From Dudresnaya verticillata (Eukaryota): a stretch of DNA of 64,000 nt. Under the pieces are notes generated by a model. That model ran no database searches and was not told the origin of the DNA. It worked only from the letters and a program-made list of their open reading frames with translations. Shown here in pieces: positions 2,873-33,690 of this stretch. The stretch is taken from the NCBI GenBank assembly GCA_977862235.1, contig OZ374565.1:992001-1056000 (forward strand). The letters run 5' to 3'. Each line of letters opens with the position of its first letter. Position 1 is the stretch's first letter. The translations under genes were made by a program, and so were the position numbers.

Positions 2873-2883
2873 AAGGAGGGGGG
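2873..2883 (+). promoter_or_regulatory. Polypurine tract of element A
   Basis: AAGGAGGGGGG lies 2 nt before the TG start of the LTR. Confidence 0.75.
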
Positions 2884-2885
2884 TC

Positions 2886-9250: not shown

Positions 9251-9253
9251 TGA

Positions 9254-9651: not shown

Positions 9652-9664
9652 CACTACGAGGTCA
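9652..9664 (+). repeat. Left TIR of the CACTA-like element
   Basis: CACTACGAGGTCA. The subterminal CAGAAATGAC at 9729-9738 also occurs at the right end (28201-28210). Confidence 0.9.
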
Positions 9665-10218: not shown

Positions 10219-11852
10219 CTAATCATCTGGTAAATTACCATTGCCTCTAGTCGATCGACTGAAGCACATCGCTACTCTCTCGAGTACATCTTCGTTCGCT
10301 AAATGTGCAAGCTCCCCACAGAGTTGCTTTCCGCGAGCCTGTACAAAGGGCAGACTAAGGTCCAGGGTTCCAAGATTGGACGTTTCTCGAGCGAGACGGT
10401 TGGACCACATCTTTGTGCTTAACTTCGTCGTTCGACGCCAAGTCAGAACAATTTGTTGGAAAGAGCGACTTTCCGATTCGTGGGGATCTTGTATACACGC
10501 TTTCCTCTGTGTAAGTTTCAAGCGACTGTGATACCTACCATCCACGACGTCGAAAATTCTTGTCCTCCGCGTTATTACTACTGTACGACCCACGTTCCGA
10601 TGACAGCACGATTCCGTGGATCCACGCCCGTGAGCCTTCGGGCAGAAGACGGCGCTGTGTCTAATAAACAGATGGGCAGGAGCTTCATCATTCTTTTCAT
10701 CATAGACGTATCCGCCGAGAATATGAAGAAGATCTTCATTCGCTCCTGACCCACACTTTCGCATCATATCCATTCTATCTGTTACACGAGGTATGTCAAG
10801 GTGCGTACATAGATCGTCGAACGACGCGAAGACTATCTGAAATCGGGGACAGTCTTGCGCTGGGGATTGTGTGTGGCTGAAGCCTGGATAGAAGAAAACC
10901 CTGTCCCTTGTTCGTACATCGGCTCCTATCCATCGCGCGCTGCTTTCAAACTCACCCAGCCCGCAGTCGACAGTGGTTCGCATAACGAAGTAAGCTAGTT
11001 TGTCCTTCCGAGGGACTAAGGTGATACAATCCATTCCCTGGCGCTTGCTCCTGTCTTGAGTCATGTGCACAGTTGTTTTCAGCGCCGCTTGCAACCGTAC
11101 AGCTAGACGTGTTTGCAGGCATGACATAACTCGCTCGAGGCATTGTTGGTCATGGTTGGGACGGTCTCCCTCTTCCAGCCTAGAAATCCTGCGTTCGAAG
11201 AAACTTTTGTGGCCGAGGAGCTCTACTCTCACTTCTGCGTAGTTGTCACGGAGCCGTTGTATTTCCTCCATGCAGTTTCAAATATGACCTTTAGTAGATG
11301 TTCTCATCCGTTTAGAGACTGGCTCCCTCCACTCCTCGTCGTCGTCGGATACTTTTTCATTCTGACGATCGTCTCTAGCAGCAAAACGCCAAGATGGTTT
11401 CGGGTTTCCTTTGCTTCCATCTCTGAAATTATCAAGGTCATTCGCAACGTCTTCATCTAGAGGAGCCTCGTCTTGACATGACAGTAGATACCCTGAGTAG
11501 AACAAAACTTTATCGACCTGCGCAGGGTAATCATTTTCAGAAAGATAGTGGATGACTCCAGTGCCCACCTCCCTGTCCGATAAGTGGCTCCACAAGCAGG
11601 CCATCCGCTGTACACCACACATCAGGGCAGTCTGGATAGTGGTCCATTGTCCATAGGACCTGTATCAATGCAGCAAGTGGCGGCAAGTCCGATCGCGCCC
11701 TCGTAATGCGCCCACCCCCCATGATCACACGGTACAGAAAATACCTCTTGTTCACATCCAGACCCACGCAGCAGTTCCTCTAGATCCGTCCCGTTGGTAG
11801 CAAGAAATGTGGTAAAACCTTGAAGAACAAAAGATTTCCAATGACCGGCCAA
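10219..11852 (-). pseudogene. CACTA cargo ORF 1 (disrupted), unknown protein
   Basis: The 350-aa ORF 11271-10219 is in frame with 11622-11278 across one stop, with frameshifted pieces further upstream. No recognisable domain. Confidence 0.6.
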
Positions 11853-12920
11853 GATCTACCTACTTGTTTCCACACGAAAAATAATCTTGTGTTCTTACGT
11901 ATGCCGTGGGGAGGTACTTCAGGCCTGACGCGCGTCAAAGACAAGTTCGAGAGTGCTCCAGTTCCGAAACTGCATCCGGCGTAGCCGCAGGAAAGGGGAG
12001 TTCTTATGCTACGTGCGTTCGATGCTCAGAGATACAGTGCTGTTGAAGTACAGGGCGGTGTCGGAATGGAACGGGGACTCCGGAGGGTGCAGAATGTACC
12101 GTAGACCGATGGGCTGCCTACACGTTTGTACAAAAATCATCCCCGCTACGATTGGTTGCAAATAAAGGTATTGATGTAGTTGTGGCGCCACGATTACCGT
12201 TCATTGAGCTCATTCTTACGGGCTGGCCCAGTCACTTGCTCCATTTCTCCTATACAACAGGGATATGATTTGACGCGATGAATTTCTCGTGTAAGAGGTG
12301 TAGGTATTACTTCTCTTGATCAGAAACAGTCCTCAATAGCTCTTGCCTGGGCTCATACTGTGACGGACGTCCGTAGCTGAAGATAACTTCGAGCGTAATT
12401 GATGATCTACAGACTGCTGACGCGCGTCGCTGCTCCATTTACCTGTTCGTCTCGAAATGGGCGGGAACTTCTAACCATGGGAACCATGCTGTTCACAGCG
12501 TCTGCATACATGTCTACTCAAGTGCGGGTGGCTCATCGCACTATCGAAACCATAACAATGTTTGCCGCGAAAAAAGGCTCCGCCGATGCTCACCGCAGCA
12601 TGAGGACGGCCAGTCAATACCGCGTGTTACGAAATTGTGGGGCCACATTCTATTCTTTGCAATGAACATACGTTATTTAAGTGAGCAAACAACAGCTTCC
12701 TCCGCAATACGAGACGATCTTTTTCGCGCGAAATAATAGCTCATGTTGGCACCGAAACGATAACAGGATAGTCTGTGGTGATGTGGGAATCCCACATTGG
12801 CGTTGTGTAGAAGATATGACATCATCGACCGCAAACAGGACATTGATCGAGGAATCTTGAAGCCGGTTTGGCGGCATCCACCTCCCAGTATAAATTCCCA
12901 CTTTTGTTAACCAACCCCTC

Positions 12921-15592
12921 ATGAACCGTACGGTCGCACCCCCGGAACACTTCTCCCTTCTCTTCTGGGCACGACGTGCAGCTTCCCTAGAACGAGGGGA
13001 TTCCGTAATGGCTCCAGCAAGGCAGAAGCAATCCGCCCGGCAGCGCGGGCGACCCAAGAACACTTCGCGAAAGCTTGCGAAGTTCCGTGAGGATTTCGAG
13101 GCGCAAGAGCTTGCAAGCGGAAAGACTACTAAGGGCAGTCAGCCGAGTTCTGGGAAGGAAACTCCGTTACCAAATGCGAGGAGGGGAACCAGACAATCTC
13201 CGTCGAGTTCCGGCGGCTCAGTCAATCCGCGAAGAAAATATATCCTGGACTCAATTGATGACGCAACCGACATCCCACGCACAACAAAATATTTATCACT
13301 ACGGAAGAGGCGTGTGCAAGCACCCAGAGTCCCACCAGTATCTGGTAAAAAGCGCTTTCTACCTGTTTCAACAGGTCATGAGGACGATCTTGCCGACTCG
13401 GATCACAGCAGGTTACGCAACAATGGAGAAGAGTGCACGCAATCGATGGACAAGGAGTTGACACGCCCATCGAAGAAAAGAAAGGAATATCTCACACCCG
13501 AACGCAGGAGTAATTCCCCTCTTAATTCGAGATTAATGTCCGGTAGCGCTACGAATTCAGATCGGCGACCAGGAGTTGGTGTTGAAGGTGCTCCTCGCGA
13601 AGACTGCTGTTAAGGGGAGGAAGCAGGGGAACAATACCCAGCCTTTTTGATGAAGATGAAGATGTTCGTGCTAGTTCAGTACCAGGATCAGCCATGAGGA
13701 CACGTAGAGGTGATGTCATAGAGATGCCTCTTGCCAAAGGTAGCATTCTGCACGCTTGTTCCCGCGATGATGGTTTCGTCGGTGAAGAAATTGAGCCTCT
13801 CATCACCACCGATGCTTGTCCACCTCCTCGGACTCCTACAGGTACCGAGTTTCTGTCCAGGCTTATATCCTCTGTGGCAAGAGATATATCTCGACAAAAT
13901 GAAGATCTTCACAAGGCATGTTTGACAGCAATCAGGGTGTTTGAAAGCAAACTCTCCGCGGAGATGAAGACGCTTCGAGAGGCGATTGCTGATATGGTTG
14001 TCTCGATGCTTAAGGTCGGAGTCCTCGTGGACTTGCGCAAGTCAAGAATGAGTTTAAAACCATTTTGGGACAATGGGAAAAATTGAATGACCTCACCCCT
14101 TTCAAAAACCTTGTGTTCTGCTCGTCCGTTTTTTCGCGAGTACTCGTCTATAATGTCCCTCTTATCATTGTGCAGATCTGCAAGGAGTTGCGTACTGGGT
14201 TATCCAGAGCGAGCGGTAAACGGGAGGCCGTTCTTCAGAATGCTTCAGAGGCGTTGTCCACACTGATGTTCAGTCTTATGCCTAACAAATCTCGTAAGAA
14301 ATTCGGAGAAGGTATTGGGAAGAGGCACGGGAACTCCAGGTTTACAGTTATGCAAAATTCTTTCTATAATATCCAACGAGACAGATTTGGCTTCTTCAAG
14401 AAATCAGGCAGTGGTTCTTCACCTGGAACCAGTTGACATACGCCGAAGTCGACAACCGATGGCCCCGTCGACCAACCTATGTGGACTAAGCCCGGTTACG
14501 TCACTTTGAATTCATTACACGCCGCTCGGCAACAACTGGAACAGAAGAAGGACACTCGTAAGACGAGAGTGAAGGACATTCCAGCCAAATCAGATGTGGC
14601 TAGACATGGATCCATGAAAGGATTTCGTTATCTTATCTCGCATCTTCATGACGGACGCGAGAGGATCCGTTCTATGTTTTTCCAAGATCTTGGATATCTT
14701 CTCGTGAACTGGAATGAGTTTGTCCCAGATTTGGACCAGCGGAATCTCAAGCTGAGCTGGATGCATCAAGGCACAGTCGATTTGGATATGGAGAGAAGAT
14801 ATCTGTCGCTCGACGATGTTCCGGAAATGAATGTGCACCGTGGAGGCCCAACCACAGAAACAGATGCTAAGAACAAAGCAGAGTTGGAGGACTTCTTTTC
14901 TGAATGCCCGGAGATGACGCTTGTCGCTGAGCATGAAGTTTTTTCTGTCCGGTACTCCCAATACGTCAAGACAGAGGAAAGATTCTGGTGGTGAGAAGAA
15001 GGTAATTCGCCGTAAGATCAATCTTATTGGCGTATCCTGGAACTTTATCAGCGACTATACGAAGGCTGAAGATGGATGGGCTTTCTTTCGAGCACAAGCG
15101 TTATCCTTGAAGAGCATTTAGGCGATCGCAATGGTTCTGAGAGAGCTGGTAGACGGAAACAACGTCTCCTCGGTAGGCGGATATAATGTAATACGCCCAG
15201 GGAATGCTGTTCAAGCTCTTGTACTTCCAGGAGAGACGACTAATAAGATTTTTTGTTGCACTTCCAAGAATGGTGCCCAATTGCAACAATATGTTGTCAT
15301 CGGGATGGCTCAGATTGGACATGGTGATAGCTGGATTCTGGTGCAGCGCTGCATAAAGGAGTGCAACATGATTATGATGGAAAAGCCGCTAAGTTCGGCT
15401 GCGGCCCAATGGATGAAAATGGGTGATAGCGTTAGAAGAATATCAATATATCACGACTGCAGATCTGAAGACGGCAAGTTATGTCCTTTCGATCGAAATA
15501 CGGGTAAGGTTATACATCTTGGTAGCATTCTAAGAGGTTCCAAGATGAGATTTCAAGGCAGATCAGAGGGATTCCCGCCAAGAATGGGGTAG
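12921..15592 (+). pseudogene. CACTA cargo ORF 2 (about 880 codons, disrupted), convergent with the transposase; unknown, possibly a TnpA-role accessory protein
   Basis: Chain of + ORFs: 12921-13613, 13694-14086, 14065-14436, 14479-14994, 14921-15121 and 15131-15592. The N-terminus is basic/disordered with RGRPK and KKRK motifs; the C-terminus is YHDC...C...H...GFPPRMG, followed by AATAAA near 15612. Confidence 0.65.
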
Positions 15593-16236
15593 TGTGTATT
15601 GCAATGTAACTAATAAAACGCAGCATATCTGGATACCCGCATTGATATTATTACCTGCGCTGAGTTGAGGGTGGCCTCCCAACGCGCTATGACGCATGGC
15701 ATGCGCATGCAATACTCCAGCACACCATCTCCATGCTGCAGCACTCAATGCTAGCACTAGCTACAGCAGCTGCATGCAGTGCACCATTTCACACGCAATA
15801 GCATCGCGATCACGAGTTCCGCCGTGCCCCGGGGCACTTGTGGATGGTATTGCCCGCTGGAGTAGGAGTCGAATCAGTAACGCTTACCAATTCACATTTT
15901 CATTGCTGGAAAGTGAGCGCTTGCACGGTCATTGGTTCGAAGTAATCTCGATCGAGATTTCCCACCCTCGTCCTAGCGTTTCACAATTGATTGCTATTCT
16001 CTGGTCAATACCCGCAATGTATCACCTCCTACAGTAACAACAGCAGAAAGACTCGGTAGAAGGTCAAATATCCGTGCGGGACATCATCACTGAACCAGCA
16101 AGCTCGCACGTTCCCAACTATTCTTCGCAAACGCTCGTTTTCAGCCAGAAGCCGGGCTCCAGCTAGGAGACGAAAACGGCTCATCTTTCATGGAAACCAA
16201 TACCCTTTTATTGCTTTGAGACGCATCATTCATTAT

Positions 16237-19200
16237 TCAGACAACGCTGCACAAACCTACGCTGTTGAACACATGTATGCGTACAGGCATGCCTGCATGG
16301 ATACGAATTTTTATCATCTCGCGATACATATATATCTCGTTGTGCTTGCAGAAACTTAGTTTGATTGCTCTATGACTCGTCTGATCAAGGGAGCCCAGTG
16401 GCGCCACTGCATTTAGTGCCGAGGAGTTTAACCCATATCGCAAGTGCAACAACACCCACGTCGTCCGAAACCTCAATCATTGCGTCATCCCTTTCATCCT
16501 CAAGGGGACTTTCCTCATTCTCGTTTCGATCGAACATGGGCTGGTGTAGGGCAACGAACTCTGCCTCCGTCAATCGGATACAACGACTCCCTATGAGCGT
16601 TCCCTGAGTTCCTCTGCCGGGCATGAGCAAGGCTATGCTAGTGGGTCCTATCTCGATCGATTCTAACTTTGGACGAATTCCAGTGCTCGGGTCGAGCGAC
16701 CGGATGTAAGTATCTACTGGATCCGACTGGACTCATTTACAAGTATTAAACAGCGTCAGCTCCGATTGCACAACTTTTGAATTGTAGGGTACCACTCTCG
16801 ACGGCAAGAGATGCAGCTTTCAACGATAGAATTCACTTCCTCCCGTCGATCGACAATATATGTAGAATCAGTATTCCTTTGGTTGATGCATTTCCATACA
16901 GTAGCATTCGGAGATGAGAAGTTGGACATTAGTGACCTTCCCTTCAAGAGCCTCTTGACTGGTGCAGAAAGTTGATCATTGAGGCAGTTGTCAATTTTCG
17001 CAATTATGGAATGATGCTCATCTTCCACCAGTCCTTCTACTACTGTCCCCAACATGAACTTCCGTATTTCTCGTCGAGCGACCTGATTGTTACTGCCTTC
17101 TTCAGATGTTAACTGCCTGAAGACATTGGCGAGACGACCTTGCCAGTCATTTCCAATGCAGTGCTCAACTGCAGAGATATGTGCCTTGCGGTAGTTCGAT
17201 CGAGCGATACATCTCTTTAATGTCTGATGAGCATGTTCAAATACAAGCTCGGTAAATTCTCGGACGTGCCCCATGATAGGGATGGAATGGAAAAGGAGCT
17301 CCAGGAGCCTGTGTAGATTCGGTTTGTCGAGAAAACCCTTTATGCCAGGAAACTTCGAGCACACACGATTCACTGATGATACGTAATCCTTCTCCATTGC
17401 CTGTAGCTCCTGGTGGTATATTGAGCGACCAGCGCCACACACGAAACTCACAGCTCTTAGACCATCAACGTCTTCTTCAGGCCACCATTACGTATAACCT
17501 CATATTTTCTGAAGCTTCTGAAGTATTTGCACGAGTCGATGTGCAAGAGACGTTGCGTTTGTCGAGCGACTTCGTAAGGGTAGCATTATGGCCATCACTT
17601 GTGAAGCGACGCAGACGACACAAAATGGACTGGACAGGCTCATGCTGTTCATCTTCTTTGACGCAGGGTTGTACACTCTCTTCTGCTTGAGCCAGCCGTT
17701 TTCGGACAAGGCGTGAACTATATACCTGTTGGAAACGAGCCGTAACCCTTTCGGAAATGCATAGAATATTGCATCCATTATATTGTTGGCCAAACCGGAC
17801 AAAAGGTGATCAGGGGCGACAAAGTTCGAGCGATATGCATCAAATACTCCTGGAACAACGGGGCTCCCCGAAATGGACCTTTGAACGAGATGTTGTACCT
17901 CCTCGATTCATTTCTGTATAATATCAACGGGCAGCTGTCGTCATCCACTCTGGCTGCTTGTTTCATGCCCAGTGTATTAGCATTTCTGTCACTCAGACCA
18001 GCATCTCAGAGTGCTCCTTGTCTCTCTCCTGTTCCAGCGAAAGCAGAGTTCTGGCAATGTATCAGAGTGGTGTATCCATTTTGTGTCGATTCGTCGTAAT
18101 TTTGATTCTCCTTCCTGAATGTCCACATAGTACACGGCGTTTTCGCAATGTGTCCTAGTAGATCTACGACATGAGCTGATGCAGGATAGTCTCCTATAAA
18201 ACCAACCATATCAATGAATATCCTGACGTCTTCACCACTCGGCGTTTTTCCCCGTATTCCATCTATCATGGATTTCACGAGATCATCAACAACAAAGTGC
18301 AATACCTTATTAGTAGAAACGCCCGGTGGAGTGAGAGAAATAATACGAACTGCCGAAGTGCTTCGACGAGATTCAGCTGCAAGCCCGATTGGGAGCATGT
18401 AGCAGCCTCCGGCAGACCCTTGGGGAAACAATGAGGAACCCGGCTTACAGTCGTCACAATAAAGTAGAATTCTATATACAACGTACTTGGTACCATCTTG
18501 AAGGATCCCTTTGTTAGGCTCTGTGGGCTCCGAATCAGACAAGTGATGAGGCTCCTCTTCGCTCGACAGGTGTCGTAGTTTTCGAACAACTTGTCTGAAT
18601 ATCGGCTGAAAGACTCCCTCTTCTTTTTTCTTGGTTGCCCAAAGCAGGGATAGTGAAGGGATGCTGTCAGTTTCTCTCATGAATGCATGAACGATTATTA
18701 TATAGGTTCTGGAGGGGGTTTGTTCCCTCGGTATCAACAAAGTACACTGATCTCCAGGAAACAAGGAAAGGATGCGCTCCATAGCAGTAAGGTGTCCCTT
18801 TTCAATTACAGAACCTGAAAACAGTTTGACGATCGTCTTCTCATCCGTTGTCAATTGGCCCAGGGATAGGGCTTCCTTAAGGCTTCTAGTGTTTTCCCCT
18901 GGTTTCCAACGCACCATACGCAGAGTATCTTAGCACTAATACGAAAAGAGCTTGAGGCCGTTGAAGTGTCGTAGCTGTGGTCCAGGTCTGGCACTTGGCC
19001 TGCGACAGTTAACTCGAGGTGACATCCCGGACCTGCTTGCTTCAGGAACCCTGAAGCATCTTCTACAAAAATATTTTGCCCCTGTAACAGGACTTTCTTC
19101 CGAGACTTGACTAGCGCTGAGCTCTCAAACGTCCTCTTAAACGCTCTAGTGCCAGAAAGTCGCCGCTGACCGATTTGTGCGTACAGTTGGTCGTAAACAC

Positions 19201-20293
19201 TACTTGTTGCAATATCTAGAAGCGCCCATGAAGACGGCAACACAATACGCACCTCGGCACTTCCGGGTCCCGTCTGGCTAGCAACCTCATCCCCTTGTTC
19301 ACGCGCGTGACGAGAGCTGGCTCTACATGACTGCCTACTCGAAGGGGTAAGCTCCATATGAGGACTCTGAATAAACTGTACTTCTGTATGTTCGACCTGT
19401 TCTTTAAGCAGGTTGTTCATGAATTGTATATCTTCTAACCGGAACACCTTAATTACGCTCTTTGGGAATACCTTCCGAAGGAGCCTGTCATAGAACCTTT
19501 TCACTGCTTTATAGGAATGAAGAGCTTCCTCATGGGCCATACTGTTCACAATTGATCTGACAACATCAAATTGTTCATCCGAAAATATCCCACTGCCAGT
19601 TACCATTAACGTAGAAAGTAATCATTTCCTGTTAGACCACTTCTTAAGTTCCCTTTCCAGAATACGTTCCAGAATGCGTAGTTCTGTCGATCGACACGAT
19701 GCTCCCACACCTGCCACTTCTGATGAGTTTCCAAGCTCCTTGTGCGTATCTCATTCATCGTCTATTAGATATAGGATCTCATCTTCCTCATCACTGCTCC
19801 GATGCTCATCACGTCCTGTTGTTTCCTCAAGTTCCGAGCTGAAAGGTAGAAACTCTCCCCCGGCCTCCCTGTCTCGTTGCTCGCCTCTCAGTTGCTCCAA
19901 CATCACTTCCGCTGCTAGTGCTGTTGAAACTTGAGGCCGTCGACCGCTGGATCCAACTCCATCATTTCTTTCTTCGTCTAAAAATCGTTTCTGTAACTGG
20001 TCAGTATCCCTGTTCGCAAATGTGCCTGTTGCAGATGGGGATCTCCTGTCTTGAAGTAAATCGGAACCTTCACGCTCGTGTCCGTTGTCATGATCTATTT
20101 TCTCGTCGCTTTCTGCGGACCGCCATGGCGATGCCTCAGGGATTTCTTCCATGCGATCTTCAAAATCCGTATCGTTCAATTCGACGGCTCGCTGATCGAC
20201 ACCTCTTCTCGCCCGATATGGGTCGAATCTATTTTTTGCAAGAGTCTGGAGCCATGTTGAGTTCTCAGAATCCCTCCTCCGCTTCCGAGGCAT
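16237..20293 (-). pseudogene. CACTA/EnSpm-type (TnpD/Plavaka-like) DDE transposase, disrupted
   Basis: Motifs: YRILLYCDD (D1), GGCYMLP, FIGDYPA (D2), GHIAKTPCT, APDHLLSG, KPNLHRLLE and ELVFEHAHQTLKR (E). Probable start MPRKRRR at 20293. Several frameshifts; the 3' end is approximate. Confidence 0.85.
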
Positions 20294-20507
20294 GACCGAA
20301 GAGCTCTTGAGCTGTTGAGCTACTTGAAAATAGAATGCAATGACTTGAGTCAATGTTCACGGAATCCACTGATGTTGCAGAGCTCTGCAACAATTTTTAC
20401 TTAGGCAGTTCAGATAAAGTGGTAGTGAGATCGCTCGATCCGTATGATTAATTGTGAGCTCAGCCCTAGGGTTGCATGGCCAACAGTAAACGTCCTAGGG
20501 CAAGCCA

Positions 20508-20573
20508 ACAATTACATTGTTCGCCAGAGGAACCGTGCACACAATGACATTGTTCGCCAGGCGAGCCGTGCAC
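20508..20573 (+). repeat. Two-copy 33-bp tandem repeat upstream of the transposase
   Basis: ACAATTACATTGTTCGCCAGAGGAACCGTGCAC / ACAATGACATTGTTCGCCAGGCGAGCCGTGCAC. Confidence 0.8.
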
Positions 20574-21519
20574 AATTGCCTTGTTTTGTGAAGCTACTCG
20601 CGCGTCATTGGCGCTTCATTGTCGATCTGGGCCATTGCAATTCAGCCAGCAGAATTTCAATGGCCCAGATCGCGAAGCTTGTGTCGGCACTGTATGTGCG
20701 CATATGCAGCGCTGGCATATATGTCGCTGGGACATGTGTCATATGCTGGTGCCAGGCTCCAACTGTACACAATGTTATAACATTCCACAACCTCAGCAAA
20801 CAGCTCAAAACCGGAGGGTCCCTTTTCGGGACACCTTATAGCTTGTGTGCGAGGTTGGGTGTCTTTATATCGCACATTTTACATCCAACCATCTATATAC
20901 AATATTGGTCGGTGCGTAAGTAGAGAAACGTGATTGATAGTACTTAATGTAGTAAATGACGATCGTAGAGATAAATATGAACGTAGAATTGTGAACTAGG
21001 TTAACCTGATCGATTGTTAGCATCGACAATTGTAGGGTTACTTATGTTCTTGGATTAAAGCAAGAACAACAAGTAGCAAAGAAGTGAGAAGTGACACTTG
21101 AATAACTCATCCAAAAGATAACTACCATGGTGCCCGAGGAGGCGAGCAAAGGGATGAAATCGTTCCAATATCTGTATACCAGCCCTGGAGCTACCAGACC
21201 ACAGAGAAGGGAAACTAGCAATACCCATGGGCCATCGTCGCCCGCACAAGACCACCCTAAGGAACCATTAAAATCAAACATCACTTGTTTCCTTCATACC
21301 TCTGTGTTGAGAAAATATGCCGGCCAGCCCGGGGTGTTCCAAGGATATTAAAGTAGCTACTTGTAACTCCTCTCTGACTCGAACGAAATGACACCTGAAT
21401 GCCAATTAGCATTGGCATTTGGAAACTTAATTGAGTTGAACTTAAGTTAACAACAGAAATAAATAAAGTCTCAGACAAGAAAATAAACGTGCATCATGAT
21501 GACTTGTGCACAACCTGTA

Positions 21520-22760
21520 ACACCAGCGCAATAGCGCGCGTGAACTCATCGATCGACATTGAAACTTTAGAAGTGTCTTATACATGCAGCCGCAGCTATA
21601 AAACAAAAGTGAGGGGGCCGTTTTATGTAGGTGTACACAGTAGCTACTCATAGGATTACATAGTGTTATAGACGTAGGCAATAAGAACACTTTGCTTGTC
21701 GGGGCTCCCCTATTCCTGCACGGGAGTGGCTCGTGTGAGGTGGTGGAATTGCGCACACCATAAGTAGTACAATAGAAGTCGCAATTACAGTTATGTGAGT
21801 AGATTTTGAGGAGGAACGTCTATGACAATTGCTTAAGCACCCCAGCACGGTAAGCGCTAGTCTCCCTCATGAGGTTAATGATCAGGTCTCTTTGCTTAAC
21901 TGCAATTGTACATAGCTTTCGTTTAAACACGTTCAAACAAAATCTATGTACAATTGCGCTAGTGTAGCGCACATTCGTGCGCATTTTCCCATACAATACC
22001 CAATTAAATAAATGAAAGTCAGAGTTAATATCACCAGCTGCTGGCACTAGTGCACTACTCAAACATGCTTGAATGGCGAGTGCTCACGCGCTACCAAGCG
22101 CTTAAGCGCTTGACAAGCAATTGGGTGTCACGCGCGTGAATTGGTCGTTCGACATTGAAATCTCAATGTCGTTAGCCGAGAAGCTGCCGTAGGACAGTTT
22201 GAATAATAAGTAGGCTTATGTAGGCCTACTCCGGATTGCAAGGCCTAGAAACGTCTACCGATAGATAGATAGAACGCTCGTTACCATATGCGATATCAAT
22301 ATCGAGAAGCTCCGCGATGCTGTTAAGAGGTAAAACGTAAGTACTTGTGAATAGCTCTCGTTTTGTGAGCAATTGCGCACACAGTAAACTATAGTTTCAA
22401 CTACAAAAAAAGCACAGTTACCTTCGTGTGTATAGAACTATTAAGCTAGAGCCTGACGAGGAATTTGGACCTCAAACACGCGTGGGTTAACCCAGAGCAC
22501 TAGACGCTAGCCTCACCAGGTTAATGAACAGGTCTCTTTGCAAAGTGCAATGCTTGCACACAGCCTTTTTAGTGCTAGCACTTGAGCAGAATATACAATA
22601 CGCCACTACATTATCAAAAGACGGCGTCATTCTGAGCAGTGTCTGACTCGCGAGTCACGCAGGTGACTCGGTACCTCGATCGACGTCGATCGACAATAAA
22701 ACGTTAGCAGCGTCGACTATCGTTAGCACCGAGAAGCTTCTCGATGTTAGCGATGGTGCA
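21520..22760 (+). repeat. Degenerate tandem duplication of about 600-650 bp in the non-coding core of the CACTA element (2 copies plus a partial third)
   Basis: Collinear anchors: CGCGCGTGAA...CGACATTGAAA at 21535 and 22131; AATTGCGCACAC at about 21747 and 22371; AGGTTAATGA-CAGGTCTCTTTGC at 21872 and 22518. Confidence 0.65.
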
Positions 22761-23184
22761 AAAAACTCGCCTGTCGCCTCCACGTGGAGGCGACAGGTTA
22801 CCTTCCTCACCATGGGATTGGGAACGACGAATATCTCCTAGGAGATATTTTACTTTCTTGGCCTTCAGATCTGCTAAAATCTAATAATAGAATAGAGCAC
22901 GCCACTTTTACCAAGGAATCCAATACAGCCATGACCGGACCAATAATAATTTCGAAGGGGGTGAGCACTGTACGTACATAAGGCGGCGCCCGCGGGCGGC
23001 GGCGGCAGCTGCCGGCTGCAGCGAGCTGCAGTTTGGCAGTGGCCTTTTCACTGCACAGGTCTTCACTCCGAGTCGATCAGCCACCCCAGCCTCCCCAGCC
23101 CCACCAGCCTCCCCCAACCTACCTGTTTCAGCTCCAAAAGTTTTCGCGGTACCGCGCAACCACGCGCGTGCACAACACGCTGCC

Positions 23185-25110
23185 ATGACGGCCCGCATGA
23201 CCACGGCTTCCGCCACCACGCCTGCTCCCGTTACACAGACGCTCGTCTCTGCGCCGACTTCCGCCGCCGCGCCTGCTCCACCAAGTCAAGTTGATTCGCC
23301 TGCTCCCTCTGTGATGTCTGCTGCGCGGGCTTCATCCGCCGCGCCCGCTCCCCCACTTTTGCCGACGCTCGTCCCTACGCCGGCCGCCCCGCTTGCTTCT
23401 ACCGCTACTCCAAGGGCTCATGCCGCTACTGACGATTCAAGACTAGTTGATGCGCCGGCTTCCGTCGCCCCGCCTGCTAATGGAGCTGTGCCTTCTTTCT
23501 CCACCGCCGAACCGTCTTCCGGAGTGGCGCCAACAGCGGCTCCCTCCACATACCTGCCTGCCCGACCTTACACAGCCATTGCACCAGTTCCCGAGAGCCT
23601 ACCGGCAGGTTTCATTAGCTCACGTGGAGCCACGGATGCAGTCGATCCTGCCGCCATTTCAGATCCTCATCACCTCAAGCGAACTAGAGATGTGCAGCAG
23701 CCGTCGTCTGTTCTGCAGTACGCCATTGAGGTCGGCATTGAGCAGGCCCGTTCGTCTAAGTTTGGAAGCAGCGTGCAGCAGTCGGTTCCCCTGTCAAAGG
23801 GCATCGCGCCATATCCAGGTACTCGCGCGACAAACGTTCTTTATCAAGAGAGAAGAAGGCCCCCGTCAATGCTGAATCATATTCGACTGCAGGGTGTGCA
23901 TCAGTGGTCCTATGAGCCTGTGCAAAGGCTCTCCTATAAGACCTATGTTGTTGAGAACGACAACCCACGAGCTGACATAGTTCGACTCAAGTATCTCGCG
24001 TCGCTCGACACTCGGTGTGCACGGGTATCGCTATAAACATGGCAGGAGTATTGCGAGGAGCCTTGTCATCGTATACCGTTCACGCTGTATTGCGAGCGTA
24101 CTTTTTGTCGTGACGGATTCGAGGCGTACTACGTCTATGCCATGGATATCTTGCTGAGCAATGATGAGCTGGAGATCACAATGGAAAACCTGCCGCTGTT
24201 GAAGGACAGAGTGACCGACAGAAGGTGATTTTCATTTGCCGATCGGCCCGTACTCTTCCGGGAACTTCACAACTGGATTATACACAACGTTTGGATTGCG
24301 TCGGATAGCTGCACGAGCCGCGAAATCGACACTCTCCCTCTATCTACTCTGCAGGATGACTTCCCAACACCTCCGAAATGGCTCGAGCAGTTCCACCAGC
24401 CGGCCGGACTCCCGTTACCGACTCCTTTGGTTCTGTACTACTATCATAGGGAGCCTCGTTCGCAAGATGACGCTCGTCGTACGAAGAGGATGGATAAGCT
24501 GCAGAAGGCCTTGAAGCTGGAATACGTCGTTATGTTTGTGGCTGCGTGGTTCTTGGAAGCTTCTTTAGGGTCCAGGCAATTCATTGTCCCGTTTGAAACC
24601 ATTGAGGAGCTCGGAAAAATAATTGGGGATGTGACGATCGTCAAGAATGTCTCCAACGCGTATATTCTGTCCTTGATGCGCCTCGCCGCTGTGTCGGATT
24701 CCAAGCTGTACAACGGCTTCCACTTCTTGCGTTACTCGTGGATGATGGCTCAAAATGTTCTCGACACAAAGCCGCCGGTTCCGGACAGCATCTTCTTGTG
24801 GGCGAAGAAAGATACAGGAATCATGGACACGCAGGAGCCTTCCGGGAAGTTATGCTTTGCCTCTTTGTGGACGAGGAATATGTCGGGAGCCGTGAAGACT
24901 GCGAAAAGGTGCGAAGAAGATTGGAAGTCTGCTCTTGACACAGTACTGCGTGCAGAAGACTACGACAGGGTGCCAGGTTTAAAGACTCTAATTCGCTCTC
25001 GGGTTGGGATCAGTCGAGCGACCTTACTGTTGGAGATATTTCAAGAATCTCCTCGGGGTTCACAAGCACTCTTTGAACACGTCCATGCGAACTGCGAATA
25101 TGTACAATGA
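23185..25110 (+). pseudogene. CACTA cargo ORF 3 (about 640 codons, two nonsense stops), sharing motifs with the Gypsy antisense ORFs
   Basis: A single frame runs 23185-25110 with only TAA 24034-24036 and TGA 24226-24228. A Pro/Ala/Ser-rich N-terminus precedes TPPKWLEQF...LPTPLVLYY and LKLEYVVMFVAAWFLE...RQFIVP. An overlapping ORF to 25624 may be a frameshifted tail. Confidence 0.72.
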
Positions 25111-28100
25111 AGATCGTCAACAGCAAGGCTATGGTGATGATGAATACTATGACCGTGATCAGAAGCGCAGGTTGGGGGTTGGGCATCGTGATGCTGATTA
25201 TGGAAATACGGGCAATGACGTTTACAGTTCCCAGCGCCATCGTATTTCGTACGATGGATGGGACAATGCCGTGGATGGGAGAACTCGTCGTACTTCGGAT
25301 GCCAGGAGTTGTTATGACTCTCGCTACAACCAAGAGTTCACTTCCTGGCGTCAGAATCTAAGCAGTCCTTATCATGGTTTGGAAGGACATCGAAGCATCG
25401 GAGCCGGCTACTATGACGAGCGTCGTGCCGAGGGACGCCCCAGTACTGGGGCAATTGCTCCAGCGCCGTTGGAAGATGAACCGCGGCCGAGGCCGGGCAC
25501 TCCAGCACAAGTTGTTGACTGCACTGCTGCACGGGTAGACCGCAGCCGCAGCCGAGATCCGACGATGATGGAGAATAGGCATCCAAGCAGCTTCCGTGAC
25601 TACTTTGCCAACTATGACAAGTAGTTACCAATTTAGCATGGCCTGATGTAGAGCTACATTAGACATCAACTGCAGTTCGCATTCCAAACAAGAAAAGGGC
25701 GCCTGAACATCTTCATGAACAACATGACCCGTTTGTACTAAGGTATGGCTCGAGCATCTGACCTTGTCCCACCTGTCCAGCAAGTCCCTCCTTAAGCACG
25801 TATTTTGCACGCGCGCAAATATTGCCCGAACTCGCAATGCGGTGACAAGCCGTATTCTACCACTCCCACGCTCTCTCACTGCTCTTTCAGCAGCAGCGGC
25901 AACCGGACATGCTCGTTACAGGAGACCAGCAAGCTCTAATGTTTAAATATCTGTGCTGGTAACGACAACGCCGCCGAACCAAATGGTCGGAACCGCATCC
26001 CCCGAGTCATCGTAAATATCCGGAGCTTAATACCGGCAATCCCATTGTCCGCGAGGTTAATGAGCAGCACATCTTCGGCGGCGGCGGCAGCCTTTTCCCA
26101 TTCTTCTGCGTACCTGCTATTTGCCGTGCTCTACTGCAGTTGGCAATGCGGGCTCATGCAAGCAACTCACACAAGACGGGCGGCGCTCCAAGGTGGTCTC
26201 TGCAGAGCTCTCGGCCGTCTCATTCTCATCTGACCGTATAGGCGACGCGGCGGTAGTCGGGAGTGGGGAGACCACACGCAGCTCGCTAATGCGAATGAGC
26301 ACGGGCTGTCGGTGGCCGAGCCAGTAATGAATCGTGAGCGGGGTGGAGCACGGGGTGGTGACGTCGGCGCCCTCAACACGCAGAAAGCCGCTCCAGCGGC
26401 CATTCGTGAGGGCCAGCGCCTGGCCACGCAGAAAGTCCATGGCGAGCAGGCCCGCCCGGGCGCATTGCGGGTAGGTATGGGTGTGGGGCTCCCATTGCCA
26501 TTTACCTTATAGTAAGTTGATAGCAATAATAATTATTGCACGGTCGACCGTCGACAGTGCTCGCTCGACATTGCACAATGATAGGAGCCTGCAGTTGTGC
26601 AGATGTGAGAAAAGCTTTGATTCTGATGCCCCCGGTGCCGCGGCCCAAATCAACCACATTGTTGGCATTGTTTGCGATTGCGGCAGATCACCACTTGGGG
26701 CGCTACATTTCGTGCAGCGATCAAAAAACGCTGCTGGAAAGAATCACAGGGGGTGGATTTCAAATCAATGGCTGCTGTTCGGGGTCACAGTATGGGTTGC
26801 AAATTTGGAGTCAGCCATTGGTTGCACGTGATCGAAAGGGGAGGTGCAAGGCCACTTGTAATAGCTTTCCATAGATTTTAGGCGGACTTTGTATGGACAT
26901 AACCGACGAGTTTCGGGCTGGAATGGGATTTCTGGCATTCGAGCCTGGTCGGAAGCCTCCATCCTTGATCAAGTAAACTTTAACAACATAACGCCCATGC
27001 GTCGAATATGCAGATCCGCCGCAGCCCAATTCGACAAGTACACTTGCGCAGCTTCGAGACAAGAGACGAGCGTTGGACGTGACTGGCACGTAAAGTGCAT
27101 GGCAAAGAAACGAGGTGATATTACGGTCACCTGGATCGCTCGAGATCTCGAGGCGCTCGCCTTCATCGCATCGCCGCAGTGACCGGGAAACTTTGCCGGT
27201 ACCTTTAAGGTGCTAACAACAAATTGGGCAGGAATACCGCCGCTGGCGAGTCTCAGTGAGTAATGTACCCATCAATCCCACTAACACGATCTCATGAAAT
27301 CACTCGGAAGTCGCAGGGGGGAATACATGTCCCGTATTCTCGCACAATTACAGGTGCACCTGGAAATGACATTCAAGGCAGTGATGAAGATCTTCAATGC
27401 GTACTGGTGGATGACTGCAGCAGTCTTCAGTAGTTGACTAACACTTTGTTCGTATTCAGACTTTCCCTTCACCTTATGGAATACGCAGACCGGCACTGGA
27501 TACCCGCATTGTCTAACTTTCGCTGTACTCATCGCTCTTTCGCATTTCAAGTTGACGAGAATTCTGTCGAGCGATATTGTCTTGTAATGGAACAAGGAAT
27601 TTAATGGCGAACGACCTTGTCAAGTGTAAGTGCTCACTGACCTTTCGTATTTAACATTCTATGGAGCGCTGTACTACGCAACGGCCGTCAAGCTGGGTAT
27701 CCAGCGCCGAACACACGCGCGTGTGATGTTTTGGTTCCAGTTTCCGTATGTACTTGTTCGATTTCAACTGGTGTCGTGCGACGGGGCGAGGGGCGGTGAA
27801 GGAGCAATGATGGTAAGGTCCCAAGGTAATGCCGAGCTGCGTTTCCGCCATGACGCGCGTCATACTGCAAACCGATTCAGAGCAGGGCTCCAGAAGCGAG
27901 CTCTGTATATCATCGCAGACAGACAGTCCAATGATCGCAATCAAATGCGTAGTTTGAATAGGGGCAAGCGATTCATGCGCTGTGGTTGTGATTTATGGAA
28001 TCAATTCAAACGATGGGTGTCATCATCCGCTCCCCATTGATCTCATGGGCTTGCCAGTCAAAATTTACCTGTCATTTTATCAATAATAGAATGCTGGAAA

Positions 28101-28206
28101 TTAGGCGCGCAAAGGCCTGTACCGACAAATTTGATTGCCCCTATTTCGCACCAAATGGCGCGGGCCAATGCAGCACGTCTTTTAATTTATTGATTTCGGT
28201 CAGAAA

Positions 28207-28219
28207 TGACCTCTTAGTG
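28207..28219 (-). repeat. Right TIR of the CACTA-like element
   Basis: TGACCTCTTAGTG is the reverse complement of CACTAAGAGGTCA and is followed by the CG TSD. Confidence 0.9.
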
Positions 28220-28221
28220 CG

Positions 28222-29491
28222 AGTAGTTACGCTCTGGAGCGGTGAGCGAGCGAGACCAGAAGCCGAGTGGCTTCCGCTCTCCGTCGGGCTGCATTTGAAA
28301 GACAGCGCAGCCGACTTGATACTCGCTAGCGTCGCAATCGACGGATTATGGTAGGCCCTGCTGTGGTAACGCCAGGATGGGCGGGTTGGTCACAGCCTTG
28401 ATGAGTGTTCTGAATGCCTTGGCTTGTGCCTCACCGAACGGGGACAACCGGAAGTCTTGATCCTTCCCCAAAAACGTGTTGAGGGGTGCAGCGACGTGCG
28501 CGTATCGCGACACAAGCCGTCTGTAGACGTTATACAGACCGAGGAAGCTCCGTAGCTTTTTCTGATCCCGTGGATGCTTGGCTTCGCGTAACGCGGCGGT
28601 GACAGTTCGATCGACTTCTATCCGTCCTGGATGTATGGCATGACCCAAGTAGTTGACCGTCGGGGTGAAGAAGTCACACTTGGGCAACTTCAGGGTCACC
28701 CCGGCTCGGTGTAGGGTCGATAGGATCTCGTCAATGTGACGGAAATAGCTATCGATGTCACTTCAGAAGATTATTACGTCGTCGAGGTAGAAGAGGCATG
28801 AACGCCACTTGTAACCAGCGATCAGAATGCCAAGCGTTTGTTGAAACGTAGCGGGTGCGTTCGTGAGACCGAAAGGCATATTGTTGCGGTCCCGCGGATT
28901 GATCGGCACCTGCTAGTACCCACTGTTACAGTCTCGGTGGTGAAGACGTTTTCCTCCCCTAGACTATCAATGCACTCGTCAATACGCGGAAGCTGGCACG
29001 TATCCCGTATGGTTACTGCGTTCAAACGGCGGTACTCTACACAAAAGCGCAGGTTCCCGTCCCTCTTGGGGGCAAAGACCACTGGTGACGCCCACGGCGA
29101 TTGTGCAGGTTCGATGAACCCTTGACGCAGCATGCGGTCCACTTCTGCTTGAGCGAGGTGTCTTTACTTCGGCGCCCCACTCGGTAAGGCGGGGACGATA
29201 TCGGTCTAGAGCCGGGAAGCAAGTCGATGTAGTGTTCCGCGGTTGAGATTTCTCCCAACGAACCGTCCCACATAGAAGAATACTTGCGTAACATCTCCTT
29301 AAACCGGCCTTGATGCCCGGAAGGGACATATCCCAGGTCCAAATCTTCCACTGACGTAGTCTTGGCAGTGGTTGCCTCGATCGACTTCGTGAAAGTATCC
29401 AGTTGTGCCGCAATATCATCGTTCGTTTGAAAACGGAAATATTGGTTTGCCTTCTCCTCCCCTGTCTGTTCCTCTGTGAGGCCCAAAACAT
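28222..29491 (-). pseudogene. Gypsy reverse transcriptase plus N-terminal half of RNase H
   Basis: Motifs: SPWASPVVFAPKRDGNLRFCVEYRRLN, LPRIDECIDSL, MPFGL, CLFYLDD (about 28777-28797), KCDFF...YLGH, LRSFLGL, GFWSRSLTAPERNYS. Confidence 0.93.
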
Positions 29492-29614
29492 CGTCTAGCC
29501 ATACGTGACTGGGTAACACTGCTTTCGGATGTGGCAATGCCGTCGCGACGACTTGGCCCTTGGCCAGCGCCTGCGGGCGAGGGGATAAGTTGGCAACCAA
29601 AATGCGAAACTCTT

Positions 29615-30250
29615 TTAGCGGCTCCACTTGAGTGATCCCGTTCGAAACGACCAGAGCTTGCTTGTGGTACAGTGTTCCGAACGGTTGAATTGTACTGACG
29701 CCGGCGCGTTCGGTGGCCACCGATATCCATTGCTGCGCTTTAGGCGGGATGATCGCACGCTCAGTTGCTCGTATCTTGGGCGGCGTCCTTCCTTCGGCCT
29801 TGCCGTATTCCTGTTCCGTTGTAAAAGGAGGATAAGATGGGGTCGGTGCAGGGGGCGGCGCGTTATAGGGACACGAGTCCCGTCGTCTAATTCAACCTCG
29901 CGACTTCGCGGATAAATCGCTTTGAGAAAGCGGTCGCAAAAGTCGCAACCGAGTATAACCGGCGCAGCGAGCCGATCACAAACGATCAGTTCCAACTTGA
30001 CGACCCACTGTCCCAGACGAACGACCAGATAGATGGTACCTCTTGTCTGCATCGCCTTTTTCTTGGCGTCGGCTATGACGGGGAGGCTTCTTTCCACAAT
30101 GCGTGATCGCGGTTCCAGTGGAATTTCGTCAATACGAATGAAATTCGGACCAGCCCCCGTGTCGAGGACAGTGCGTTTATGCGCCAAGGTACTAACGGTT
30201 GCCCCCAAGCCGGCGTACACCTTGTAGTTCCTCTTGGTCATTACGAACAA
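29615..30250 (-). pseudogene. Gypsy aspartic protease
   Basis: VLDTGAGPNFI active-site motif and ILGCDFC. Confidence 0.9.
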
Positions 30251-30409
30251 CTGTCCCCACGCCTGGGGCTGGTACCTTCGCCATGGGGTTTTAATGACGT
30301 CTGAGACGACTCTATCCGCCCGTTGGCGTCGTTAGTAACCAACTTCGGGCCCTCCTTCCGTGTCGGCACCCAAGGTCTAGGCCTCTCTTCACGGTGCGAC
30401 ACCCCAGTG

Positions 30410-32651
30410 TCAGGATTCGGTGCCCGAGTTATTTTTCGCCTCCGGCGGTGGTTGTGGCGCTACGTAGCGATTGGTCATCGTCGGGTGACGTTCTGCCGCG
30501 TGCGGTATGAGTCCGCCTCTTGACGATTGCGGCCGTGCAGCACGACAGGCAGCGTCGCGGGTCGCGCGTTCCTTGCAACGGACATACGCATCAGCGGGGA
30601 CACCAGCCTCCTCGGCCTCGGTTAGTCCTTCATAGTTGGTAATAGCCTTCATGAAGTCGCTCATGCGGAGGAAGCAGTCCGGGGCGATATGTCCGCGAGC
30701 GTAACATTGATGGCATACCAGCTGCCGACGCGCGTCTTGACGGGGCGGACCTCTGTCCTGCCATCCGGGCCTTGCCCGGTGAACGTGTAGGCCATACTCG
30801 GAATATGGAACGCGTGGTGCAGGTGCAGGTACGACCGAGCGCCCAAAGGCGAGAGCAGGGTTCATGCCCCTTTTTTATTCGTCTTAGACGTAGCTGTCCG
30901 TCAGTAAACCCGAAGTTGGCACCGACGCTTGCTCGTCTGCAAAGTATAGATCGCCATCGGCGTTTGTTTCCATGTCATCGACAGGGCGGTTAACGTCTCG
31001 GAACTCGAGGGAGGACTCCGCTATCATAGCGCGCGCTCCAGGCTTTGCGCCTCTCGTCTGGGGACGCAGGAAGCCTCGGGCATCGCCGATGGCGGGGCGC
31101 GACGCGCGTGCGGCTTGAGCCGGTATCAGTATGTCTCGTCTTGCTGACGCAGAGCCGATCCTGCCGTGTCGGGCGCGGTTGGCGTCCCCTTCGTCCTGTG
31201 TGAAGTGGACCAGCCGCTCAAATGACAATTCCGCCCTTGGCATTTCTTCTCGAAAGCAAGCCACGAGTGACCTGATCGACGGGTCCAACCCGTCGATGTA
31301 CAGTGTCATCTTCTCCCAGTCGGGATAAACGTTACCGCAACGAATACATTCCCCGGACAGCCGCATCCAATTGGTCGTCTCGTCTTCGCCTTGCTTCTGG
31401 ACGGTCGAACGTAGGGCGAAGACAGCGTCCCGAATCGCCGCTGGCGTAGCGTAGGTACGGAGGAAGTACTGTACCGCCTCCGGATACGAGGACACCCCGC
31501 CGCGATGGCGTGAAGACGTAGACTTGACGGAGCGGAATTCCGTGGCTGCCGTACCTCGCAAGAAGTACGGCAGTGCGACAAACGCTTGGGCTTCGCTCAT
31601 TTCCAGCGTGTCTGCTTCATCCGCGAATCGGGTTAGGAATTCTAGGACCATGACGGGGTCGCTGCCGTTCAAGGCGGCGTCCTTCATGGTCAGCTCCAGG
31701 CGCTTAATATGGACCTTGACCTTACCCGTGTCGCGCTCTGAGCGTTTTTGCCCTACGTCTTTGAGACGGTAAGTCCTGTACGATAATATCTGATCGAAAA
31801 GGAGTTGGAGGGGCGTAGTTACTTCAACCCTTTGTACCGCTTTCCGCGAGGCCTTGCGGCACTGCCGAGAGCCGGGAAGTCGTCGTCGTCAGACGAAGAG
31901 TCGGATGACTCTCCGTCACTTGATGAGTCCGAAGAGGACGAGGACGAGTCCCCACATCGATGACGGTTCTTCTTCCGCCTATGACGCAGCTTGCGGCGGC
32001 GTCTCTTCCGATCCTTGCGTCTGTGACGTTCTTCGCACGAGCTCTCGTCACCCGACGGTGGACCGTTGCGCCACTTGGCGGTTTCGAGACGCTCTAAGCG
32101 AGTCGCCAGTCGCTGAAAGCGTTCGCGTGAGTTAAGCTCAGAGTGCGAATGAACCGTTACTGCCGGCAATGGTTGGGTACCTATACCTTGGCCTGCTTTT
32201 TGGTTCGTCAATAGACGGTCGAGATCGTAGCGAATCCCTTGTAGGGAGCCGTCCCAATCTTCTTCCAACGTCTGTAGACGACTTGTTATTCCTCCGACGC
32301 TGTCGTCTAGCAAACCGGTGAACCTTGCGAGCAAAGCATCGTCTTGCAAGGCGCATACCTCTCGGATCCGATCGCGTGGTATCGTTAAATTACTCACGCG
32401 GACGCCCGAGGGTGATGCCGTTGGCGGTTGGCTTTCGAGGGTTGACCGGTTGGGGGTTCCTCCAGCTCTTTGGCTTGGCGACTTCGGCTTAGCCGGAGAA
32501 CAATCGGCACTGCCGTGGGGTTTGGGGCAGTACGCCCCAGGTGGCAATGGGTCTTTAGCGATGTTGCTCTCCGCGGAGCGCTCCTGATCGTCGTTGACGG
32601 GGATAGTTGGTGGACCCGGAAGTTCCGGTTGTTCCTCGACGATTTCGGCAC
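30410..32651 (-). pseudogene. Gypsy gag (disrupted) with a CCHC zinc knuckle
   Basis: ORFs 32547-31819, 31687-30884 (retrotransposon gag-like FLTRF...YFLRTY...TVQKQGEDE) and 30865-30410 (CHQCYARGHIAPDC). Confidence 0.85.
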
Positions 32652-33690
32652 GTATTCCGTCTACGGCGCGCTGTTGCTCTTCTCGTACTGTATCAGCCGA
32701 TTCAACGTATGAGCGGTAGGTGCGGAGGGTCGATCCCTCGGGGACTGAGGTGCGGACGACAACAGGGAGGCACGTCGGCGGGGGAGGTCACAATCTTGGC
32801 GGTGTGGCCATTGCACACCTACTGCTGCTTTCCCCGCTTCCTTATGTCATCTAGACGATAGAAGGGGTAGTCAATTGCCTGAGAGAATTCGGGGACCAAT
32901 TTGCTCAACGGCTCGACGCCCGTCATTAACGGTCCCTGGTGTCAACAGTCTGACACCAAACCTTCTCGTGGTGAGGGGCTAGAAACCACCACGGCTCTGC
33001 CCCCATCGAGGGTGCGTTGAAGTCTCTTAGAGTTGACCCAGTAGAAGGGTTTGTCGTCTCTTTTCGGGCGAGAAGACCGTTGCCCACTCCTAGGAGGGGA
33101 GGGTGGTGGTGAAAAGGGTGTTCGCTGAGCATGACGCTCAGAGAGGAGTGCCGCGGCCAGTTCGCGAACTTATCCGCTTGAGACGGAAATCGCGGATGAC
33201 GGCTACGCAGCGGCGACGGTCTGAAATTCCACTGTTTGTGCCGCGCCGGTGCGTACTTAATCAACTCGACGCGTTTACGTAGCTCATCTAGCAGCCGTTG
33301 CGCTGGGGCTAAGCCGTCCTTGACGAACGACAGAGTTACACGTCGAAGAGACTCTAGGTCACGATGACCTTGAGACCAGGCTTTTGCGACTGAGGTCAAA
33401 AATATGTCGTACAATTCCGAGAACGAGACCATCGTCTCCTCGTAGAGTAGTTTGAGTTATTCTTTCGAGATCACTGTACCTTCTAGGGCCTTGGCAATAA
33501 CCGCCCTGCTCTCGACGCGCTGTTTCTTTAGAGGAGCCCCTAACACGCCGGCGTTACTGAGTAAGGAAGTGCGTCGACGGCCAACTTCACCCGACCCAGC
33601 GGCTGCCGAACCGGCAGCGGTCGAAATAGGTAGCAGCGGGATTCCTGACTTCCCTCGAGATGACGCGAGAAGTGGTGGGGTCTTCTGCAA

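Follow-up and report, generated by a model that had tools for sequence, protein, structure and literature searches.

A protein family encoded antisense to Gypsy pol and its likely divergent member in the cargo of a giant EnSpm/CACTA transposon

Accessory genes of described transposons

For plant and fungal Gypsy retrotransposons (Grande gene23, RIRE2, Retand TRP28/PF04195, Boty), additional open reading frames (ORFs) situated after pol and before the 3′ LTR, on the opposite strand, are described in the sections of two reports devoted to them (PMC7264820, PMC11963269). The plant proteins were nuclear where this was tested, and the nuclear location of Grande GENE23 was shown, according to the same sections (PMC7264820, PMC11963269). 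The plant mobile domain (PMD; MAIN/MAIL1) is common to Gypsy retrotransposons and the class II MULEs, and its use by transposons for anti-silencing has been speculated upon in the pertinent parts of PMC5418596 and PMC8616336. VANC, which is dicot-specific, is presented there and in part of a further report as structurally related to MAIN (PMC8616336, PMC13547354).

In red algae, giant Plavaka elements (EnSpm/CACTA) of 17.4-19.1 kb carry the cargo genes PAG1-3, and the accessory genes of Plavaka are mobile among TE families (bioRxiv 10.1101/2025.02.11.637652). In the sections of that preprint dealing with cargo, PAG1 has no detectable domain, PAG2 combines an adenine methylase with SET, and the repeat arrays are assigned, in this Bostrychia study, to the ParB-like PAG3 (bioRxiv 10.1101/2025.02.11.637652). 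The En/Spm elements of C. crispus measure 16-20 kb and have 4-5 ORFs, as given in the relevant part of PMC6431247. Also, in bdelloid rotifers, different classes of retroelements have ORF3 types in common, as stated in the passages of PMC5408684 on these genes.

Each ingredient of the locus presented here has a precedent, namely antisense Gypsy ORFs, giant Plavaka cargo genes and the PMD shared by Gypsy and MULE elements. Our search of the literature, which covered sources other than Repbase Reports, subscription journals and preprint supplements, found no description of the protein family reported below, or of a link between Gypsy antisense ORFs and red-algal CACTA (Plavaka) cargo.

Gypsy elements of the window and their antisense protein family

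The window, that is the whole 64,000-nucleotide stretch of Dudresnaya verticillata DNA that was analyzed, consists of nested, decayed transposons. At its left edge lies the antisense ORF of element A (positions 1 to 2322, minus strand), which runs past the window edge. Its conserved domain occupies 1144-2205 and is followed by a stop at 1087-1089, then by a low-complexity linker, a small helical motif and a basic tail. A polypurine tract (2873-2883, plus strand, within 2873..3257) and a TG...CA LTR-like stretch (2886-3257, plus strand) were read from the sequence; the second LTR would lie beyond the window. Based on these two signals, and on a close relative that faces a chromodomain in the tandem unit described below, element A is probably a Gypsy element of which the window holds the 3′ end, without gag-pol.

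Element B is more complete. Its antisense ORF (4512..5823, plus strand) belongs to a short-form subfamily and bears two frameshifts, near 4870 and 4978. The 3′ part of its pol (7340..9651, minus strand) comprises the RNase H end, integrase and chromodomain; Pfam recognized RT_RNaseH, Integrase_H2C2 and rve, and the chromodomain was found by tblastn at E 1e-6. Gag, protease, RT and the RNase H start (28220..32787, minus strand, by-eye reading of translations) are located on the far side of a CACTA insertion. A search for the second LTR of element B did not find it. Additional antisense ORFs of this type (aORF-3R) are placed between pol and the 3′ LTR on the opposite strand, and this is the arrangement in element B, where pol ends at 7340 on the minus strand and the ORF occupies 4512-5823 on the plus strand; for element A, the side of the polypurine tract and LTR alone falls within the window.

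A stretch of the 4402-bp tandem unit carries a copy of the C-terminal tail of element A (41120-41455, plus strand, 70% identical to the tail of A), faced by a chromodomain (41812-41937, minus strand, sequence comparison). This stretch, 41120..41937, is the remnant of a third element of chromovirus type.

The antisense ORF of element A has 112 relatives at E<=0.001, 30 of them at E<=1e-10, among 1.84 billion protein representatives searched with phmmer, the relatives being clusters at 50% identity. A word-indexed protein search with the same ORF gave no match, and it was the unindexed HMMER search which revealed the family; with the family alignment, the word-indexed search returned 3 proteins. 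When 22 database proteins were looked up, an organism was named in one cluster, the red alga Gracilariopsis chorda, for hypothetical proteins, so that the host is probably red-algal. The name of ubiquitin hydrolase attached to two short members of one cluster was not trusted, as these are fragments of 48-56 aa. No relatives of the element A ORF were found in viral contigs or plasmids.

The family alignment, built from A and 85 of the 112 relatives (27 short or weakly matching ones were left out), defines a conserved domain of ~330 residues. The core had no Pfam match in the 86 aligned sequences, and the few matches obtained were to coiled-coil families in single members. For TRP28/Transposase_28 (PF04195), none of the 86 sequences matched at E<=0.01, and this family was absent among the matches listed (25 of 67 families at E<=10); the plant mobile domain was likewise matched by 0/86 at E<=0.01. 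AlphaFold2 modelled the domain as a mostly helical structure with good scores (pLDDT 89.8, pTM 0.91). Foldseek found no match for this model at E<=0.001 in the PDB or among viral structures, VIA-align gave a best Z of 3.9 (89 residues, 4.2 A) and none at Z>=5 over 48,161 solved chains, a sequence search of the PDB returned nothing below E 0.3, and a family member in the Atlas yielded no usable match. This suggests that the modelled fold is of an unsolved type, an absence of matches falling short of proof.

After the domain, long members continue with low-complexity sequence, the small helical motif and often a basic end. The helical motif was recovered in 24 of 135 proteins by a self-inclusive iteration, hence with inflated E-values. 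It contains a Cys, precedes a coiled coil and is present in A, in the tandem unit and in long members, where it belongs to the tail; element B and the CACTA gene treated below lack it. An NLS-like basic pattern was present in the last 40 residues of 13/29 members of at least 450 aa, versus 7/217 internal windows. Judging from these basic C-terminal motifs and from the coiled-coil tails, the Gypsy-encoded proteins may be nuclear and oligomerising.

The sequence-only reading had proposed a dN/dS comparison between copies. A value of ~0.20 was obtained over 87 codons between the C-terminal tail of A and its tandem-unit copy, and thus bears on the tail, not on the shared domain. Conservation across 112 clusters, together with this tail dN/dS, shows the conservation and purifying selection that are expected of an aORF-3R.

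The ORF of element B, read with X at the two frameshifts, scored 29.8 bits against the whole-family profile; with a profile of 14 short-form members the score was 49 bits. Four of its six blocks were significant. In a tree of 60 database rows plus the three window sequences, it fell inside the short-form clade with support 1.00. The short-form alignment found nothing in viral or genome contigs and two loci in a metagenome scan. At one of them (L001), an ORF with a Pfam Chromo match (E 7e-11) lies on the strand opposite to the homolog and faces it, as in element B; the other (L002) has no visible neighbour, so that context comes from one of the two outside loci. The family is thus encoded antisense to a chromodomain-ending pol in element B and in an independent contig.

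Position, orientation and a long protein with coiled-coil parts make these genes similar to the plant and fungal Gypsy antisense ORFs, as described in the sections cited above (PMC7264820, PMC11963269). They differ in that the family core has no match to PF04195 or to any Pfam family, and in having a relative in a DNA transposon. Also, pol terminates with a chromodomain in the present host Gypsy elements, whereas Retand is non-chromoviral in these sources (PMC7264820, PMC11963269).

ORF3 of the CACTA element

The RNase H of element B is split cleanly by a transposon of 18,568 bp (9652..28219, minus strand), read from the sequence at both junctions. Its termini are 13-bp TIRs that start with CACTA and match at 12 of 13 positions, and the target duplication is the 2-bp CG. 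With short TIRs from CACTA and a short target duplication, this 18.6-kb element belongs to the EnSpm/CACTA superfamily. It contains a degenerate transposase-like ORF (16385..20293, minus strand), with 4 stops and 3 frame changes by a by-eye count and without any Pfam match; its layout, read by eye from known motifs, may be of the DDE type, which would make it a putative EnSpm- or Plavaka-type transposase. ORF3 (23185..25110, plus strand, 641 codons) is a cargo ORF with in-frame stops at 24034 and 24226 and no frameshift, whose first ~225 aa are rich in Ala, Pro and Ser. Transposase and ORF3 stand head to head across a non-coding stretch (20508..22797) of degenerate ~540-650-bp repeats in 2-3 copies, with hairpins and palindromes. 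Hairpin arms of 24-27 nt are found at 20623, 21902 and 22716, and positions 22770-22797 form a perfect palindrome of 28 bp.

The sequence-only reading had proposed, from two ungapped blocks, a domain shared between ORF3 and the antisense ORFs of A and B. All the quoted blocks were found in the window (ORF3 at 24367 and 24511, plus strand; A at 1653, 1479 and 1341, minus strand; B at 4919, 4978, 5041 and 5104, plus strand), and recomputing the identities gave the same 9/26 and 8/27. In pairwise comparison, ORF3 and A reached a score of 59 (z 5.2-5.8, none of 300 shuffles as high); the z was 1.3-1.5 for ORF3 and B and 0.1 for A and B.

Stronger evidence came from profiles built from all 112 database relatives with no window row, searched against 336 chunks from six frames of positions 1-42400. 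After A, the best match was ORF3 at 24319-24570 (plus strand; profile positions 163-242), with 25.5-26.6 bits and E 4e-8 to 1e-7 for 336 chunks. A third profile gave 26.3 bits. The highest decoy scores were 9.5 bits for reversed or 20x shuffled chunks and 10.5 bits for 3000 shuffles of ORF3. The ~26 bits of ORF3 are significant in the search space of the window or of a genome, not in that of a whole protein library. When ORF3 was divided into blocks, two of six were significant, and these are adjacent (positions 161-210, 0/2000 shuffles as high; 211-245, 1/2000); the three N-terminal blocks and the C-terminal block had no significant family match in the same 2000-shuffle test. ORF3 keeps 9 of 14 central conserved positions, two being absent outright and three replaced, and its best identity to any family member in the matched part is 26%. 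It lacks the C-terminal helical motif and the C-terminal basic motif. Thus, the profile comparison shows significant similarity between ORF3 and the Gypsy antisense ORFs, and the homology is supported; the extent of the shared domain narrows to the central ~85 of ~330 residues.

Other elements of the proposed domain fared less well. An AY motif had been said to recur upstream of the blocks in all three proteins. The string QDAYFV attributed to A is not in its ORF; it sits only in the 4402-bp tandem unit (at 40535 and in five repeats), 39 kb away, and the tandem-unit frames that contain it have no match to the family profile. In ORF3, the block with FEAYYV is not significant (753/2000 shuffles as high), and the stretch of B that aligns with the family motif is 'EAEY' instead of EEAYLL. 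The low-complexity tails are real, with a different location from the flanking one described, as they belong to the N-terminal part of ORF3 and to the C-terminal parts of the A and B proteins.

ORF3 resembles the long form, with 26.8 bits against the long-form profile versus 7.5 against the short-form one. In the tree it sits on a long branch with weak support, and we therefore name no donor. No relatives of ORF3 were found by word-indexed protein search, nor in metagenome, viral or prokaryote genome contigs, so that one copy of ORF3 is known, and an exact look-up in the protein collection found none of 8 window proteins. Single-sequence AlphaFold of ORF3 gave a pLDDT of 36. An Atlas suggestion of DUF6698 for ORF3 (score 0.95) was rejected on account of low recognition (1291), a shared-feature count <170 and the lack of such a Pfam match. 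Introns behind the two stops were set aside, as the spacing to the family requires none. Beside ORF3, an Arg/Asp/Tyr-rich ORF of 174 aa (25100-25624, plus strand) overlaps its end in another frame; it may be a gene of its own or belong to ORF3 as a low-complexity tail.

Two stops in 641 codons, where hand arithmetic expects ~30 for a random frame, at ~25% identity to the family, indicate that ORF3 is not the product of neutral decay. Its lesion density is 1.0 per kb, and the transposase has 7 lesions in 3.9 kb by the by-eye count; from this likeness, ORF3 was probably intact when this CACTA copy died. The flanks of ORF3 (20400-23184 and 25100-28219) have no match above chance level to Pfam, to the gag-pol of element B, to chromodomains or to LTR-side DNA, and no remnant of a target duplication lies beside it; one match at chance level (E 0.02) is inside ORF3 itself. 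The absence of adjacent Gypsy remnants, and an intactness about equal to that of the transposase, suggest that ORF3 is probably real cargo. The possibility that it is a one-off nested Gypsy fragment, which the sequence-only reading had named as fatal to its proposal, is disfavoured by these same features, judged in a single CACTA copy.

Alternatively, an intact antisense gene may have been captured recently, and once only, from an unsampled Gypsy lineage; as ORF3 it would be of no use to the CACTA element and absent from most of its copies. The single known copy of ORF3 and a window full of nested insertions agree with this. So does composition, since the ORF3 core has a GC3 of 0.59, in the range of the Gypsy ORFs (0.58-0.67) and above that of the CACTA ORFs (0.43-0.53), and its codon usage (-0.023 bits per codon) is between those of the CACTA ORFs (+0.07 to +0.23) and of the Gypsy ORFs (-0.06 to -0.17), so that a recent capture also fits. 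However, the N-terminal part of ORF3 is CACTA-like in codon usage (+0.070), the ORF3 architecture is unlike that of the Gypsy members, no pol, chromodomain, LTR or target-duplication remnant adjoins it, and the length of the element fits the described giant EnSpm families only if the ORF3 region is counted. We thus regard a one-off capture as unlikely, and consider with reasonable though far from full confidence, from the one copy examined, that ORF3 is native cargo of this CACTA family.

Comparison with described elements and possible role

The element is similar to the giant Plavaka as portrayed in the sections cited (bioRxiv 10.1101/2025.02.11.637652) in its 18.6 kb, its several cargo ORFs, its repeat array with inverted repeats and its occurrence as a degenerate copy. 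ORF3 is also like PAG1 in having no detectable domain (bioRxiv 10.1101/2025.02.11.637652), and may be an unannotated PAG1 of red-algal Plavaka. The sequence-only reading would also have been refuted by a TE family described before; Pfam has none that matches, and PAG1 would be a candidate for such a family. As for PAG2, read-through frames had no PF01555 or PF00856 match, in a copy that is degenerate and whose minus frames at 12900-16300 were covered as single ORFs. A difference lies in the Gypsy relatives, as none of the PAGs is linked to LTR retrotransposons in these sections of the preprint (bioRxiv 10.1101/2025.02.11.637652).

Like PMD, the family places one domain in Gypsy and class II elements (PMC5418596, PMC8616336). 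According to the parts of these reports on its distribution, PMD is confined to angiosperms, is fused to MULE transposases and arrived through host genes (PMC5418596, PMC8616336); in the present case, the DNA transposon with the gene is EnSpm/CACTA, the gene is a free-standing ORF without a Pfam match to PMD, and copies of it among host genes are not known. The bdelloid ORF3 types are similarly accessory genes common to distant transposon groups, but in the passages cited they are known enzymes whose sharing stays within retroelements (PMC5408684). Taken together, our data suggest an accessory protein common to both transposon classes.

The explanation that we prefer, with confidence only slightly on its side, is that ORF3 is a divergent member of the family, likely kept as working CACTA cargo, with a putative nuclear role on the element's own chromatin or transcription. 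Gypsy retrotransposons encode this unnamed family on the strand opposite to pol, between it and the 3′ LTR, and a giant EnSpm/CACTA transposon would likely have kept the divergent member ORF3 as working cargo. The protein would likely act in the nucleus, on the chromatin or transcription of its own element. It may bind that element, the repeat array that adjoins ORF3 being one putative site, and the bound protein would keep the element transcribed against host silencing. A self-directed chromatin or transcription factor is favoured because staying transcribed in host chromatin is what retrotransposons and cut-and-paste transposons have in common in their life cycles. VANC binds tandem motifs. 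Also, as with VANC of VANDAL elements (MuDR), at least in the parts of the reports that describe it, ORF3 is a stand-alone accessory ORF of a DNA transposon located beside non-coding repeats (PMC8616336, PMC13547354). For the VANC/MAIN fold itself, the family model had no match at Z>=5 in 48,161 chains, a set that may lack the VANC21 chain. An anti-silencing mechanism is put forward tentatively, favoured over a transposition cofactor.

Such a cofactor would make the gene shared and functional, with a role in transposition itself that may resemble the one of retroviral accessory proteins, for example in bringing the integration complex into the nucleus or in tethering it to a target. Integrase and the CACTA transposase, each a DDE enzyme, must both reach the nucleus. 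The basic C-terminal motifs and coiled coils of the family agree with such a cofactor, and for plant antisense ORFs a role of this kind is put forward in the section of PMC7264820 on their function. However, the chromodomain already provides targeting in these elements and ORF3 has no C-terminal basic motif, and we hold this role to be rather improbable. Very improbable is a convergent or chance likeness of ORF3, made of a Pro/Trp/Tyr-rich linker and an amphipathic helix with only A and B homologous, for although the match spans ~85 residues at ~25% identity, with an HH-suite probability of 83% (E 9e-6) and a best reciprocal match of 11.5 bits, ORF3 scores 15 bits above the best of ~10,000 decoys, three differently built profiles concur, and two blocks keep the right order and spacing with 9/14 conserved positions.

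Returning to the preferred reading of ORF3 as working cargo, its broadest form is speculative and doubtful. The family would be a putative counter-silencing protein of red seaweeds, of unsolved fold, passed between chromodomain Gypsy and giant EnSpm/Plavaka elements, a functional counterpart of plant PMD/VANC which might explain PAG1. The Bostrychia preprint names as an open question transposon silencing in red seaweeds, together with its evasion by giant Plavaka elements (bioRxiv 10.1101/2025.02.11.637652). A conserved and well-modelled domain without known fold, found in both transposon classes, provides a concrete candidate protein for this question. Even without a function, the family is a new TE protein family for the annotation of red-algal genomes. 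It also bears on the origin of antisense ORFs, which are noted as having no similarity to other TEs in the part of PMC7264820 that treats them.

Other features of the window deserve mention. The CACTA element contains two further cargo ORFs. The first (10219-11900, minus strand) has a beta-rich stretch which, by eye, we presume to resemble the H...R end of PhyH-like 2-oxoglutarate oxygenases, and is a candidate PAG3-like gene. The resemblance had no support from Pfam or from a sequence search of the PDB. The second (12894-15592, plus strand), broken and of ~900 codons, has no Pfam match, converges on the transposase and is a second PAG1 candidate. Positions 37934-64000 consist of at least 5.9 head-to-tail copies of the 4402-bp unit, each differing at 2 positions from the first copy, and this array is either a very recent amplification or an assembly artefact. 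Finally, 33711-34494 and 35599-36414 are non-coding copies, 72% identical, to which a stretch of the tandem unit (38744-38880) is related in inverted orientation, and these copies are probably the ends of another mobile element.
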